From Escherichia coli (GTDB lineage Bacteria; Pseudomonadota; Gammaproteobacteria; Enterobacterales; Enterobacteriaceae), in NCBI RefSeq assembly GCF_017348835.2, contig NZ_CP071375.1: a stretch of DNA of 64,000 nt; one strand, written 5' to 3'. Shown here piece after piece: positions 41,801 to 53,800 of the stretch; the first letter of the stretch is position 1, and each line of letters starts with the position of its first letter. The position numbers are program-made.

Positions 41801-44800
41801 AGGCGTTCAGCCCCATTGCCGGAGCCAGCGCCACGGGTAAGTTAGCAAATATCCCCATCGCAATACTGCCGATACCGGCAATCAAACAGGTGGTAACAAA
41901 CACCACTTTCGGGTCCATTTGTGCCGCGCCGAGGATTTGCGGGTTCACAAAAACGATGTACACCATGGTTAAAAAAGTGGTCATCCCCGCAATCAATTCT
42001 GTGCGGACGGTGGTCCCATGCTGAGGTAGTTTAAATAATCGCGAAAGCGTCCCTGATTCATTACTCACGTAATCGGTATTGTCATTATTCATTTTTTTGT
42101 CCATTGGAGGAGATTTAATCCCTTGCTTTTGTAAAACAAATGACAACAACGGTTCAGTGATAATTATCACATTTCAATTGCACATTAATGGATATTCTTT
42201 AATAATCTCGCGACGTTTCTTTATGATAAATAATAATCAAATTGATAAAATCAAAATGAGAAAAATATGAATAATTCTATTAACCATAAATTTCATCACA
42301 TTAGCCGGGCTGAATACCAGGAATTGTTAGCCGTTTCCCGTGGCGAAGCTGTTGCCGATTATATTATTGATAATGTCTCTATTCTCGACCTGATCAATGG
42401 CGGAGAAATTTCCGGCCCAATTGTGATTAAAGGACGTTACATTGCCGGTGTTGGCGCAGAATACGCTGATGCTCCGGCTTTGCAGCGGATTGATGCCCGC
42501 AGCGCAACGGCGGTGCCAGGGTTTATTGATGCTCACCTGCATATTGAATCCAGCATGATGACGCCGGTCACTTTTGAAACCGCTACCCTGCCGCGCGGCC
42601 TGACGACCGTTATTTGCGACCCTCATGAAATCGTTAACGTGATGGGAGAAGCCGGATTCGCCTGGTTTGCCCGCTGTGCCGAACAGGCAAGGCAAAACCA
42701 GTACTTACAGGTCAGCTCTTGCGTACCCGCCCTGGAAGGCTGCGATGTTAACGGTGCCAGTTTTACCCTTGAACAGATGCTCGCCTGGCGGGACCATCCG
42801 CAGGTTACCGGCCTTGCAGAAATGATGGACTACCCTGGCGTAATTAGCGGGCAGAATGCGCTGCTCGATAAACTGGATGCATTTCGCTACCTGACGCTGG
42901 ACGGTCACTGTCCGGGTTTGGGTGGCAAAGAACTTAACGCCTATATTGCTGCGGGTATTGAAAACTGCCACGAAAGTTATCAGCTGGAAGAAGGACGCCG
43001 GAAATTACAACTCGGCATGTCGTTGATGATCCGCGAAGGGTCCGCTGCCCGCAATCTCAACGCACTGGCACCGTTGATCAACGAATTTAACAGCCCGCAA
43101 TGCATGCTCTGTACCGATGACCGTAACCCGTGGGAGATCGCCCATGAAGGGCATATCGATGCCTTAATTCGCCGCCTGATCGAACAACACAATGTGCCGC
43201 TGCATGTGGCATATCGCGTCGCCAGCTGGTCGACGGCGCGCCACTTTGGTCTGAATCACCTCGGCTTACTGGCACCCGGTAAGCAGGCTGATATCGTCCT
43301 GTTGAGCGATGCGCGTAAGGTCACGGTGCAGCAGGTACTGGTGAAAGGCGAACCGATTGACGCGCAAACCTTACAGGCGGAAGAGTCGGCGAGACTGGCG
43401 CAATCCGCTCCGCCGTATGGCAATACCATTGCCCGCCAGCCAGTTTCCGCCAGCGACTTTGCCCTGCAATTCATGCCCGGAAAACGCTATCGGGTCATTG
43501 ACGTCATCCATAACGAATTGATTACGCACTCCCGCTCCAGCGTCTACAGCGAAAATGGTTTTGATCGCGATGATGTGTGCTTTATTGCCGTACTTGAGCG
43601 TTACGGGCAACGTCTGGTTCCGGCCTGTGGTTTGCTCGGCGGCTTTGGCCTGAATAAAGGTGCGCTGGCTGCGACGGTCAGTCATGACAGCCATAATATT
43701 GTGGTGATCGGTCGCAGTGCCGAAGAGATGGCGCTGGCGGTCAATCAGGTGATTCAGGATGGCGGCGGGTTGTGCGTGGTACGTAACGGCCAGGTACAAA
43801 GTCATCTACCGTTGCCCATTGCCGGGCTGATGAGCACCGACACGGCGCAGTCGCTGGCGGAGCAAATTGACGCCTTGAAAGCCGCCGCCCGTGAATGTGG
43901 TCCGTTACCCGATGAGCCGTTTATTCAGATGGCGTTTCTTTCTCTGCCAGTGATCCCCGCGCTGAAACTAACCAGTCAGGGGCTGTTTGATGGCGAGAAG
44001 TTTGCCTTCACCACGCTGGAAGTCACGGAATGAAAAAAGACCGTATTAGCTGATTTACGGAAAATATGTACTCCACAAGCGTCAATATCAGACGAGGCCT
44101 GGGAAAAGATAATGTTGTCTGATGAAAGTAATCAGCAGCACATCCGTGAGGCTATTGTGGCGATGGAACGCAATAACCAGAACAATTACTGGGAAGCGTT
44201 AGGCAAGGTTGAATGCCCGGATATGTAGACGTGAAGCCGCAGCTTCACGTCTACATTTAGCACTTAACGTGAACGTACATCGGGAATAATTAAATCACCG
44301 CGCAGAACATATGAACCCAGCATCGTCTGCGTCTTCTCGTTAAGCCAACTGACTATGCGGGCGGCCATTTCGTCCAGCGAATATTCTATCGCCGGAATGG
44401 TCGGTATCCCCGGAAGATGAACAGTACCCGCCAGACTAAATACCATAATGTCCTCAGGAACAGATTTATTAAACGCCTGCAATTGCGGTATCACCCGCTG
44501 CGCTTGCTGTTCATCAGCAACTAATAACGCATTAAAGTTCAGTGTTGAGGCGTTATTTAGCAGCTCCTGCAAAGCCACTGAGGAAGAGATTGCTTCCATA
44601 AAAACCAGATTACGGTTAAAGGGAAGAAAGTTTTTCTCCAGCGCGTGTTTATAGCCCAGTAAGACCTGGTCAGAAAATCCCATACCGTGTGGGTGGATGA
44701 GGGCGATTTGGCGTCTGTTCTGACTTATCAGATAGTTACAAGCGGTTTCAGTCGCGAATGTGTGATCGAACTGAATACTGTTAACATCATTACCCGTCTC

Positions 44801-50800: not shown

Positions 50801-53800
50801 ATCATCGATTCTACGGGTACAACATCAATATTAAGTCGTTCGCTTAAACGGCGAATCGCCCGTCGGGTGCCTGACGTCAGAACCCGAAAACCAACCACAA
50901 ACACCACCACGACGGTGGCAAGCATTATCCAGATCATGCGTTCTCCTGCGCATCAACTTTTGATGATATCTGGAAAACTCCCCCTGCCGTTAATCTGGTC
51001 AAATTGAATAAAAAAAGCCCGGCGTCATGCCGGGCAAAAGTCACCAGTTACGTTTATGCCACTGTCAACTGCTGAATTTTTTTCTCGCGGCGGATTTTGC
51101 GTTCTTCCATCACCGCCACTATCGCCATCAGGCAGATACAACCAATCGCGGCGATATCAAGTGCGGCGAAGGTGCCTGCCCAGCCGGTAAGGCCGAATAC
51201 CGGCGTCCCATCGGCAATCATTCCCAGACCTAACTTGGCAAAGCTGTCGCCAATCAGGTAAGCAAAGGTGCCTTTAATACCATCGGCAGCACCAATCGCT
51301 TTTTTAGGTACAAAACCAACAGCAGCCACACCAATCAACAATTGCGGGCCAAAGACCAGGAAACCCAACGCAAAGAGAGAAGCCAGATAGATATATTCGT
51401 TGCTGGCATGTTGATACACACCGAGCGTGGCGATAATCAGCGCCAGCGCGATGCAGGCCACCAGGCCACGGCGACCGTTCGCCAGGTCAGAGAGCCAGCC
51501 CCACAGCAACGTACCGACCAGCGCACCAGCTTCAAACAGCGTAAAGCCCTGAATCGCCACCGCTTTAGAGAGTTTCAGTTCCTGGAACGCGTATACGGTT
51601 GACCACTGGTCGATACCAATACGTACCACATAGAGGAAAATGTTGGCGAAGCACAGCAGCCAGATCACTTTGTTTTTCAGCACATACTCAACAAAGATCT
51701 GCCACTTGGTCATATCGGTAGATTCTGTCTCTTTGTCCTCTTCGCTGATCTCCTCGCCGAACAGTTCTTCAGCTTTGCCGAGGCCATAAGATTCCGGGGA
51801 GTCGCTGCCGTAACGCAGGCCGATAAAACCGACAATCAGCGCGATAATCGACGGGAAGATAAACATGCCGATGACATGGCCATCGAACAGGTAATTTGCG
51901 CCGAACAGCGCCACACCTGCTGCGCCTGCACCGCCAAGGTTGTGAGAAATGTTCCAGAAACCGAGGAAGGTCCCGCGCTTACGACGCGGCGTCCATTTGG
52001 TGATGGTGGAGTAACTGCACGAACCGCCGGTGCTCTGGAAAAAGCCGCTTAAGGCGTAGAAGGCAATCATCAGGAACAGGCTAACCGAGCCGCTGCCCAT
52101 ACTGGCGCTGAAGCCCAGCATACAAATGGCAGACAGGATAAGCATGAACGGCAGGAATTGTTTGGTGTTTTTGCCGTCAGCGTAGTAGGAAACCAGCGTT
52201 TTACCCACGCCATAAGTGATGGAGAAGCCCAGGCCGATCATCCCCAGCTGCGTCATGCTCAACCCGTAGGTCGAAATCATATCGTTCTGCGCGATGTTAA
52301 AGTTCTTGCGAATCAGGTACATCGTCAGGTAGCCGATAAAGACCACCAGGTAGGATTGCATGAACGGTTTGAACCACATTTTGCGCCGCACTTCGAGCGG
52401 AAGGTCCAGGGTCGGCTTGCGAACCTGGTTTAGGAAAGCCAGCATGGGTTACTCCTGAAATGAATACCTGCGTGAGGCATGCATTGTAAAAATCAGCAGC
52501 AAATCAGGCCTGAAATAGCGTCCAGGCAAAACCTGGAAAATTTCTTAGTTTTGCCGGATATGAAGTGAAAAGGTGAGATGCATCACGCTTCGCGCGGTGC
52601 CTGGGCGTTCAAAAAGGGCAGTAACAGCAGTGCGGAAATCCCGGCGGCGATAGAGATAACCACAAAAAATCCGCACCAGTGCCAGGTATCGAGTACTTTC
52701 GCCAGTGGCCAACCAGCAAGCGACGCCCCCAGATAAGCAAACAAGCCGACAAACCCCGTCGCCGCCCCTGCCGCCTCTTTGTGGGAACACTCTGCCGCCG
52801 CCATGCCGATTAACATCTGCGGGCCAAAGACAAAAAAACCAATGGTGAAGAAGCAGGTTGCCTGCATCACGTAGCTGGCAAATGGCATCAGCCACAGCGA
52901 GCCGACTGAAAGCAAAATTCCGGCGGCGAAAATCAAATTCATCGGCCCACGGTTGCCGTTAAACAATTTGTCCGAGCCCCAACCGGCTACCAGCGCACCG
53001 ATAAATCCGCCCAGTTCAAACATCGTCACTGCCGTATTCGCCGTGACCAGATCGACGCCCAGCGTCTCGGACATATACAAATTGCCCCAGTCGTTGATTG
53101 CCGCCCGGACCACATAGACCAGCACATAGCAAAACGAAAGCAGCCAGATATACGGATTCAGTAACACATACTTGGTGAGGATCTCTTTACGCGTCAGCCC
53201 TGCCCCTTCTTGTTGTTGAGCAATTTCCAGTGCGTCGTGTCGCCATTCACCGACCGCTGGTAAACCTAACGCCTGCGGGCGATCGCGCAGCCGCCAGCAG
53301 AGAAAAATCCCCACGACTATCGCCATACAACCAGCAATCATCATCCCGGCACGCCAGCCGTAATGCAGCGCAGCCGCTGCCATCACAATGGGAATGAGTG
53401 CGCCGCCGACGTTATGCGCCGTGTTCCATAATGCCCACCAACCGCCGCGCTCGGTACGTGAATACCAGGCCGTTAACAGACGCGCACACACCGGTGAACC
53501 CCAGCCCTGGAAAAAGGCGTTCAGCACCCAGAGCACGGCAAACGCCCATAGCGACGTCGAGAAGCCAAACAGAATGTTGATGATGCCCGTGGCAATAAGC
53601 CCTATCCCCATAAAATAACGGGCATTTGAGCGATCGCTGACAATGCCGGAGACAAACTTCGACACGCCGTAGGTAATGTAAAACAGGGTCGCTAACAGGC
53701 CGATATCGCTACGGCTGAGCACGCCGTTAGCAAGGATTTCTGGTACGGCGGCGTTAAAACTTTTACGCGTGAAGTAAAACAGCGCGTAACCCAGCCAGAT

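Follow-up and report, generated by a model that had tools for sequence, protein, structure and literature searches.

The DNA stretch analysed here (the window) comprises 64,000 nucleotides (nt) of Escherichia coli contig NZ_CP071375.1 (assembly GCF_017348835.2) and is 100% identical to E. coli strain PE164 across the region compared. Our subject is the segment at positions 44034–51009, which lies between ade and uhpT and carries a six-gene sugar-utilisation cassette bordered by a truncated yicS on the left and a second yicN on the right; E. coli genomes with this segment are called carriers below. Read from left to right, the window contains yicL, nlpA, yicS, an island with type III secretion system (T3SS) translocator genes, eilA and iatC, then nepI, a RelE/helix-turn-helix (HTH) pair, a first yicN (yicN1), adeQ and adeD, the adenine deaminase gene referred to here as ade. 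These are followed by the truncated yicS ('yicS), a LacI-family regulator gene on the minus strand, genes for components IIB and IIC of a phosphotransferase system (PTS), a glycoside hydrolase family 1 (GH1) gene, the PTS IIA gene, a LamB-type porin gene and the second yicN (yicN2), and then by uhpT, uhpC, uhpB and uhpA. A preliminary description of the window had correctly given the backbone order as yicS-nepI-yicN-adeQ-ade-uhpT, which is realised here as yicS-[eip/eilA/iatC island]-nepI-[RelE/HTH]-yicN-adeQ-ade-...-uhpT. The resident, E. coli-type genes are yicS at 24031–24324 (plus strand), yicN1 at 40253–40705 (minus strand) and ade at 42267–44033 (plus strand).

The six cassette genes are as first described (LacI-family regulator, PTS IIB-IIC, GH1, IIA and porin), and direct reading of the sequences finds all of them intact, both in the window and in each of five further carriers. 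Their annotation in RefSeq is routine. The regulator (44264–45220, minus strand, 318 amino acids (aa)) is divergent from the operon, has the Pfam domains LacI and Peripla_BP_3, and is placed in the LacI family by RefSeq and by NCBIfam, with no model at its equivalog cut-off. On the plus strand follow a lactose/cellobiose-family EIIB (45512–45826, 104 aa; Pfam PTS_IIB; TIGR00853 E = 3e-26, below cut-off), an EIIC of the same family (45839–47170, 443 aa; TIGR00410 at 367 bits against a cut-off of 236), the GH1 glycosidase (47191–48588, 465 aa), an EIIA, again of the lactose/cellobiose family (48585–48887, 100 aa; Pfam PTS_IIA; TIGR00823 and NF007768 below their cut-offs, best E = 2e-35), and a LamB-family carbohydrate porin (49087–50466, 459 aa; NF006860 E = 3e-38; Pfam LamB). 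The GH1 protein matches GH1 family models, none above an equivalog cut-off, and does not reach the NCBIfam phospho-glycosidase subfamily cut-offs; among solved structures it is closest to 4b3k and 5foo, of which 5foo was deposited as a '6-phospho-beta-D glycosidase', and it is probably a 6-phospho-beta-glycosidase.

The intergenic sequences hold candidate control sites. A perfect 16-bp palindrome, TGGAAACCGGTTTCCA (45443–45458), stands about 55 nt upstream of the IIB gene and is a candidate operator; a second, imperfect operator-like site, TGGAAACCGATTTTCC (45318–45333), matches it at 13 of 16 positions. A search of all 64 kb for the palindrome with up to three mismatches returned these two hits only, both in the control region, with 0.29 expected, and cassettes orthologous to this one in at least eight genera carry the exact palindrome at the corresponding place. 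The LacI-family repressor probably acts at TGGAAACCGGTTTCCA. Between 'yicS and the regulator gene, an inverted repeat with 15-bp arms of 100% complementarity forms a perfect hairpin (44223–44256), which is probably a bidirectional terminator brought from the donor. Scans for promoter and terminator consensus sequences otherwise gave background-level results, the known uhpT terminator excepted.

Together these genes should provide inducible uptake and hydrolysis of a beta-linked disaccharide or oligosaccharide: the porin would admit the sugar, EIIBCA would transport and phosphorylate it, and the GH1 enzyme would cleave the phosphorylated product, all under control of the repressor. We infer this class of substrate from the family models; no substrate-specific equivalog (cellobiose, chitobiose or lactose) reached its cut-off for IIC, IIB, IIA or GH1, and EIIC scored 367 against the 434 required by the cellobiose equivalog TIGR00359. 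The cassette resembles the E. coli chb operon (chbBCARFG) and other beta-glucoside operons with a PTS of the Lac/cellobiose family in combining lactose/cellobiose-family EIIB, EIIC and EIIA with a cytoplasmic glycosidase and a dedicated regulator. It differs in that none of its components reaches the chitobiose/cellobiose equivalog cut-offs and in that it includes a LamB-type porin gene; in chb, moreover, the hydrolase ChbF belongs to GH4 and the regulator ChbR is of AraC type, as opposed to GH1 and LacI type here.

The gene at the left border, 'yicS (44034–44228, plus strand), is the 3' two-thirds of a yicS gene of Escherichia fergusonii type: 64 codons and a stop remain, and the start codon and signal peptide are lacking. 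Positions 44034–44227 align with resident yicS positions 24130–24323 at 162 of 195 nt (83%) with no net loss of frame, and the translation of 44034–44228 is identical to YicS residues 34–97 at 60 of 64 positions. RefSeq annotates the fragment as a partial 'YicS family protein', and it is collinear with the full-length yicS genes of L112, L108 and L005 (L numbers designate the loci that we compared). The fragment is a pseudogene, and in some carriers it has decayed further, with a frameshift in Combat11I9 and loss of the stop in A16. At the right border, yicN2 (50485–50937, minus strand; DUF1198, 150 aa) is an intact yicN of E. fergusonii type, collinear with E. fergusonii at 98%, and remains intact in all carriers examined, including 14EC033, which has lost the cassette. 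It matches yicN1 at 361 of 453 nt (79.7%, somewhat below the approximately 85% first estimated) and at 130 of 150 aa, and the homology extends 39 nt into the upstream spacer, to 50976. The alignments therefore bear out the initial identification of both genes: the fragment is not something other than yicS, and the second yicN is not an unrelated DUF gene.

Two yicS-like and two yicN-like sequences within 27 kb could in principle reflect a segmental duplication in situ, in which the yicS..yicN region of E. coli was copied and the copies then diverged. The low synonymous divergence expected between such copies was not found: the ratio of nonsynonymous to synonymous divergence (dN/dS) is 0.08 at a dS of 1.2 for the yicN pair and 0.014 at a dS above 3 for the yicS pair. 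Saturated synonymous sites under such strong purifying selection indicate old orthologues from different lineages rather than duplicates born in the window genome. Further, the insert varies by only about 1% among carriers, its copies are 98% identical to E. fergusonii, and the empty ade-uhpT site is the E. coli norm and is also found in the L005 lineage, so that a duplication in situ is highly improbable. yicN2 and 'yicS are xenologues, i.e. orthologues gained by interspecies transfer, for which the earlier label 'paralogues' is misleading.

The native home of the cassette was sought by locating relatives of the regulator in one genome per species and mapping the neighbouring genes with the window proteins. 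Regulator orthologues were found in 79 loci, and in many genera the same six genes lie between yicS and (yicL)-nepI-yicN-(adeQ-ade)-uhpT, including Citrobacter (sedlakii, amalonaticus and MGH106), Enterobacter, Lelliottia, Leclercia, Huaxiibacter, Superficieibacter, Kosakonia, Pseudescherichia and others. In every other genus the cassette adjoins a full-length yicS and never follows ade. The yicS-linked cassettes of E. fergusonii, the Citrobacter sedlakii/amalonaticus group, Enterobacter, Lelliottia, Leclercia, Kosakonia, Pantoea and further Enterobacteriaceae share with the insert the same six genes in the same order and orientation, as well as the palindrome, at nucleotide identities of 98% for E. 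fergusonii and approximately 80% for Citrobacter. The copy in E. coli carriers differs from them in being ectopic, after ade, and in coexisting with resident yicS and yicN genes. Cassette gene trees track the species tree, with the E. coli copy sister to those of Citrobacter sedlakii/MGH106 at about 80–82%.

Two Escherichia loci have the cassette in the native slot beside a full-length yicS of the fragment's type. In L005, which is labelled E. coli although its backbone is only 90–94% identical, the block ends at a crossover inside yicN; in L097, a Logan assembly, it also takes in yicN and stops at a crossover that lies about 270 nt inside ade. An unsampled 'ghost' donor had been suggested when L005 was the only Escherichia locus in the species-representative scan, and was dropped when a search with the donor-type YicL pointed to E. 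fergusonii, whose YicL is 99–100% identical to that of L097. We then read 24 E. fergusonii contigs, which showed 10 distinct contexts. All ten chromosomal loci read yicL-yicS-cassette-yicN, without nepI. In eight of them a 286-nt stretch, from which adeQ is gone, separates yicN from ade, and uhpT comes next; in L105 (CP079884.1, 18294–20903) ade is interrupted by an insertion-sequence transposase gene (DDE_Tnp_1); and in L112 (CP042942.1) 116 nt separate yicN from uhpT, with no gene between them. As a side observation, adeQ is missing from all E. fergusonii loci seen, ade is missing from L112 and disrupted in L105, which suggests that adenine utilisation genes are decaying in this species.

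Window positions 44029–52458 align with L112 as a single collinear block at 98.0% identity, which spans the 3' part of yicS, the cassette, yicN2, the whole spacer, the GAAT-A7-G motif, the terminator and uhpT. The spacer includes a 33-nt stretch that matched only L112 among the sequences searched. In trees of the shared block, the E. fergusonii clade, including L112 and L097, has 0.72% internal divergence, its sister clade of E. coli carriers has 1.03%, and the two are separated by 1.91%; in the rightmost 1.5 kb, too, L112 falls within the E. fergusonii clade. Of the two clades, only E. fergusonii keeps yicS at full length in its native slot. The clade structure, the placement of L112 and the native full-length yicS together point to transfer from an E. 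fergusonii-type lineage to E. coli, and we regard this origin, read directly from the alignments, as very well supported. The proposal that a foreign yicS-[cassette]-yicN haplotype recombined into the locus and left both versions in tandem has thus found its haplotype, which exists in E. fergusonii at 98% identity.

Where the segment meets the E. coli chromosome, its two edges differ in kind. The left edge is a novel joint, GGAATGAAAAAAG (44027–44039, plus strand), in which the 3' end of E. coli ade, whose last codons form the recipient side, is fused to about codon 33 of the donor yicS. Comparison of the empty site (ACGGAATAATAAAAAAAGCCC), the donor yicS (GGCAAATGAAAAAAAGACCG) and the product (ACGGAATGAAAAAAGACCG) shows that the ade stop at the joint is TGA (44031–44033) in place of TAA and places the crossover within AAT, aided in all likelihood by the adjacent A7G run; that this left joint is illegitimate can be held with considerable assurance. 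Read across the whole site, the empty ade-uhpT interval is ACGGAATAATAAAAAAAGCCCGGCGTCATGCCGGGC, the filled left edge ACGGAATGAAAAAA(A)GACCG and the filled right edge TTGAATAAAAAAAGCCCGGC. The edges of the insert form an 11-of-12-nt direct repeat, and 3 bp (AAT) of the recipient are missing. Both edges are the same at base level in six carriers, except for an A6 versus A7 run.

The right edge belongs to the donor-native yicN-uhpT spacer (50938–51017), which is collinear with E. fergusonii L112. It contains the 33 nt (50977–51009), without an E. coli counterpart, and the right repeat GAATAAAAAAAG (51006–51017). This spacer is absent from the flank of yicN1, from L005 and from the E. fergusonii loci that carry ade. 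Spacers of the same build separate yicN and uhpT in Lelliottia, Leclercia and isolate RIT714, and the longer spacer of Salmonella shares the terminal A-run and terminator. Beyond it lie the uhpT terminator hairpin (51017–51035) and uhpT (51054–52445), together 51017–52445 on the minus strand, which we propose as the homologous anchor; the terminator is identical to that of the empty site. Since collinearity with L112 continues through the spacer and uhpT, and L112 lies inside the E. fergusonii clade, the right edge is native donor sequence and not a novel joint, and ade|'yicS is the sole joint specific to E. coli carriers. Reading both flanks as marks of recombination was therefore half right: the yicS fragment on the left does mark a break, but the right flank is the donor's native neighbourhood. 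Two other readings of the 33 nt were considered, a diverged remnant of the adeQ 3' end and filler DNA. Local alignments were no better than shuffles, and fuzzy 18-mer searches with the stretch gave chance-level matches only, before L112 proved it donor-native.

A low-frequency, sharply bounded insert 24 kb from selC, a known integration hot spot, might suggest a transposon, an integrative element or a phage. The insert, however, has no transposase, integrase or phage genes, and its junctions show neither terminal inverted repeats nor a tRNA- or att-like site; its edges are gene-internal or intergenic donor chromosome sequence. The hallmarks of an integrase-type genomic island are likewise lacking, with no integrase present, selC as the nearest tRNA 24 kb off, and A-run microhomology as the only flanking repeat. 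There is accordingly scarcely any probability of mobile-element insertion. Base composition adds little, as the difference between the insert (about 47% GC) and its flanks (50–57%) is too weak to use. selC (tRNA-Sec, 20052–20146) is the only tRNA gene in the window.

One observation concerns the motif at the edges. GAAT(A/G)AAAAAAG (44027–44039 and 51006–51017 in the window; also L013, L026 and L070) lies directly before the uhpT terminator, is conserved in genera with yicN next to uhpT, and in E. coli overlaps the last codons of ade (GAA TAA). This pattern makes the adeQ-ade pair itself look like an older insertion at the same spot.

The distribution of the segment was surveyed in 5,426 complete E. 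coli genomes. The whole segment occupies the ade-uhpT site in 24 of them; besides these, one genome has a relocated copy (LH50-c) and two have copies truncated by insertion sequence IS1 (14EC033 and CUWW06), with a truncated porin gene and yicN2 only. With 120-nt junction probes, the left joint was detected in 25 genomes and the right edge in 26. Carrier strains come from pigs, cattle, baboons, dogs, poultry, water, produce and humans. The segment is thus a rare (approximately 0.4%) E. coli haplotype, which probably confers a capacity for beta-glycoside utilisation. Junctions are identical across carriers, which argues for a single event, and it is close to certain that the insertion occurred once. 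Among carriers the insert differs by about 1%, with evenly spread single-nucleotide polymorphisms, and the flanks (3.8 kb on the left and 5.5 kb on the right) are as diverse as those of non-carriers, without carrier-specific fixed differences or any imported tract in either flank. Insert diversity of this order, combined with flanks as diverse as those of non-carriers, implies that the insertion is old and that its flanks recombine freely with the rest of the species.

In 14EC033 (L003, 3288–5545), IS1 lies beside the 5'-truncated porin gene with a partial tnaA adjacent, and yicN2 and the right edge survive; this arrangement implies an IS1-mediated deletion that removed the remaining cassette together with the chromosomal DNA between tnaA and the porin gene. 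The match in CUWW06 is partial in the same way (the 3' part of the porin gene plus yicN2), and its context is likely similar. Two further searches bear on the donor question. The exact yicN2 protein is encoded in 359 index blocks, and the genomic contexts examined for it were all the same as in the window and hence uninformative on the donor, and a metagenome scan with a donor-specific 22-mer returned one chance match (L102), one ordinary carrier (L104) and one short E. fergusonii-type contig (L103).

The species-like insert diversity of about 1% and the 11-of-12-nt flanking direct repeats would also fit a cassette ancestral in E. coli, the 'empty' site having arisen by deletion between the repeats. 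However, approximately 5,400 genomes, L005 and E. fergusonii share one ade-terminator-uhpT sequence with an extra AAT, which repeat-mediated deletion would not leave. In addition, other genera have the cassette by a full-length yicS and never after ade, and a truncated yicS after ade can only be derived. An ancestral cassette is therefore most improbable.

We consider it likely that 44034–51009 is a piece of E. fergusonii neighbourhood that was added once, long ago, to the E. coli chromosome by way of an anchor in uhpT and a microhomology joint. In E. fergusonii, as in many other Enterobacteriaceae, a LacI-regulated PTS operon of the lactose/cellobiose family stands natively just behind yicS, and yicN comes after the porin gene because nepI has been lost in this species. 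DNA of a donor haplotype in which yicN directly abutted uhpT would then have entered an E. coli cell. Its right end may have paired homologously with the near-identical uhpT and terminator, and at its left end the AAT and A7G run inside the donor yicS may have been joined illegitimately to the similar AATAAT-A7G at the ade stop. The net outcome would be a gain of 7.0 kb, a loss of 3 bp and a change of the ade stop from TAA to TGA, with a headless yicS fragment and a complete second yicN as passengers; the insert would later have passed among E. coli lineages through ordinary homologous recombination of the flanks. The outcome is an addition and not a segmental replacement, one of the two readings first offered, as only 3 bp of E. 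coli sequence were replaced. That the insertion took place in one anchored step is moderately favoured.

A proposed homologous end, a microhomology end and no recombinase genes fit homology-facilitated illegitimate recombination (HFIR), a process described in naturally competent bacteria and demonstrated experimentally in E. coli conjugation at a low frequency of approximately 3e-10 per recipient (PMC3240628). Two of its features are seen directly: the comparison of empty site, donor and product reveals an illegitimate joint at short microhomology at ade|'yicS, and no site-specific recombinase or transposase is present. As in HFIR, the proposed anchor end lies in near-identical sequence (uhpT and its terminator) and the other end at a short microhomology, with a 3-bp recipient loss and no mobile-element functions. 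The case differs from the experiments in being a natural event read from sequence, with an anchor crossover that cannot be mapped; its 7-kb insert also exceeds the plasmid inserts recovered in the laboratory, where some joints were formed without any homology (PMC3240628). The anatomy of both edges and the singleness of the event come directly from the alignments, and from them we infer the recombination pathway and the direction of pairing. The process is of an already known kind, namely interspecies acquisition by recombination, probably HFIR, of an operon from a known family; no new kind of system or mechanism is revealed.

Several observations weigh against an anchored insertion from E. 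fergusonii. uhpT is about 97.5% identical between E. fergusonii and E. coli, with fixed differences at three sites in the first 780 nt; at two of these diagnostic sites carriers have the E. coli state, and at the third seven of nine carriers have it. A donor-type tract is thus not detectable in the carriers' uhpT, as judged from the three diagnostic sites in its first 780 nt, and the crossover must have fallen within approximately 200 nt of the terminator or have since been erased by recombination. The 11-of-12-nt direct repeat at the edges is equally compatible with duplication-type or slippage mechanisms, and the frequency of HFIR measured in E. coli is extremely low (PMC3240628). The yicN-uhpT adjacency required of the donor was seen in only one of the ten distinct contexts among the 24 E. 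fergusonii contigs, and the model accounts neither for the rise of this adjacency nor for the deeper source of the 33-nt spacer. Divergence of 1.9% with reciprocal monophyly excludes the sampled E. fergusonii strains as the donor itself and implies an older or related lineage. Finally, the organism names of L105–L114 rest on the source names attached to an identical YicL protein and not on the records themselves.

Part of this evidence could be accommodated by a route of two or three steps. Slipped recombination in an E. fergusonii-type genome between AATGAAAAAAAG in yicS and AATAAT-A7G after ade would yield a tandem duplication of about 10 kb and with it, in cis, the ade|'yicS joint; the second ade copy would then be lost, and the left copy would be replaced by standard E. 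coli sequence, or the right part moved into it, by homologous recombination. The direct repeat at the insert edges suits this route, both repeats are present in cis in typical E. fergusonii loci, and the 3' end of ade in E. fergusonii is so nearly identical to that of E. coli that the joint would appear 'E. coli-type'. Tandem duplications between short repeats are, moreover, far commoner than HFIR. However, at least three events are needed, and no intermediate (e.g. yicN2 followed by a second ade) was seen among the 5,426 E. coli genomes or the 24 E. fergusonii contigs. The right edge, further, is no deletion scar of the ade-bearing haplotype and is collinear with an E. fergusonii haplotype whose 33-nt spacer is absent from ade-bearing loci. 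We therefore rate the duplication route as unlikely, though less so than the other alternatives.

The absence of a visible donor-type tract in the carriers' uhpT would also fit capture of a free donor fragment at a chromosome break by alternative end-joining, with both ends illegitimate, the yicN2|uhpT edge formed first in E. coli, and L112 as a later back-transfer from an E. coli carrier. GAAT and A-run microhomology occur at both edges, and the spacer polymorphisms CGTCCCC and TCTAATT are common to E. coli RMDEC465 and L112. On the other hand, L112 clusters with E. fergusonii up to the spacer, so that a back-transfer would have to include a crossover in a stretch of only some tens of nt, and its spacer differs from that of most carriers at about seven positions. 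The build of the spacer also matches the native yicN-uhpT spacers of Lelliottia, Leclercia and RIT714, and that of Salmonella ends in the same A-run and terminator. End-joining capture is thus quite improbable, ranking below the duplication route.

Anchored insertion may have a parallel in the relocated copy. In LH50-c (L002, NZ_CP100500.1, 8678–15436), a 182-nt fragment of the E. coli-type ade 3' end, 'yicS and the cassette lie inside another sugar island (xylA, GH43 and a major facilitator superfamily (MFS) gene). At the left joint, nt ~140 of a resident diverged porin gene is fused to ade at the 10-of-11-nt microhomology CGCTGGC(C/G)GAG, and the cassette porin gene is chimeric, changing from window type (97–100%) to resident type (63–82%) around nt 430–600. 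As read from these sequences, LH50-c is a second event of the same pattern, with one illegitimate end and one end formed by apparent homeologous recombination. It was also considered as evidence that the ade|'yicS joint predates E. coli, on the grounds of an 85% aa identity of the ade fragment in tblastn; the nucleotide alignment shows E. coli-type ade, and the figure was low because the alignment ran into unrelated sequence. The stronger proposition, that the ade|'yicS insertion (uhpT anchor) and the LH50-c relocation (homeologous porin anchor) are two independent natural HFIR-type events in E. coli, is a tentative one that we would not bet on. If true, integration by anchor and microhomology would be a recurrent, mobile-element-free way of gaining operon-sized DNA from sister species, despite a laboratory frequency of about 1e-10, and truncated 'old-neighbour' gene fragments could be mined genome-wide as the signature of such events.

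The locus is an unusually complete natural example of E. coli gaining an intact operon from a sister species without a mobile element, in which the donor haplotype, the recipient empty site, the product, both edges, and later spread and decay are all visible. 'yicS and yicN2 serve as a return address that points to the donor neighbourhood, and the same trick could be used systematically to find similar events. A literature search on the neighbouring genes yicS and nepI found no description of the insertion in the titles or abstracts of the papers listed; the cassette itself and its E. fergusonii origin were not among the search terms.

The surrounding region is variable in its own right. The yicS..yicN interval of the window had been described as a cargo site holding both a T3SS island and the PTS cassette. 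This is right for the slot from which the cassette originates and wrong for its position in the window, where its place is the ade-uhpT gap, 3.3 kb rightward of that interval. The island itself (24626–37870) encodes a SycD/LcrH chaperone, YopB/SseC and IpaD/SipD-type translocators, eilA (annotated as frameshifted in PE164) and a 2,070-aa inverse autotransporter, iatC/air/eaeX. It is the published selC-B/eip locus (eicA, eipBCD, eilA, eaeX/air/iatC), a known accessory island (PMC7058095), and fills the yicS|nepI slot, which in other genera is the place of the PTS cassette. The eip locus and the cassette thus share a slot across genera and are unrelated in gene content (T3SS translocators and an adhesin in the former), and the island lies outside the insert.

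Between E. coli and E. fergusonii, the region to the left of the insert differs more deeply than its surroundings. Comparison of window positions 22077–42540 with L108 and L112 gave identities of 78% for yicL, 75% for yicS, 80% for yicN and 65–75% for the 5' end of ade, against 91–97.5% in the flanks, and in E. fergusonii the stretch that runs from selC into ade (to its nt ~270) lacks nlpA, nepI and adeQ. As the block from yicL to the ade 5' end differs by 20–35% and its flanks by 3–9%, one of the two species must carry a block of apparently deep or foreign ancestry from an unsampled lineage. The selC-yicL interval differs as well, with RhuM-family and other genes there in E. fergusonii.

Similar variability is seen at the neighbouring slots. 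A RelE/ParE toxin and HTH antitoxin pair (39471–40137) between nepI and yicN1 is present in all E. coli loci examined that cover the interval, and a RelE/HTH pair stands beside nepI in Salmonella too. In Citrobacter youngae (L099), a sugar-acid cluster (aldolase, kinase, MFS, dehydratase and IclR genes) lies between uhpT and yicN, and a lone GH1 gene between nepI and yicS. In Salmonella enterica (L101), uhpT and yicN are adjacent, and a different island with PTS, FGGY and aldolase genes separates yicN from RelE-nepI. The cargo of these two species indicates that yicS|nepI, nepI|yicN and yicN|uhpT are all variable slots across genera. Downstream of uhpA, at about 56100–58400, two hypothetical-protein genes show 17–25% divergence in the last alignment bin and vary in length from 1,104 to 1,464 nt between strains, and the uhpA-ilvN interval looks like another hypervariable spot.

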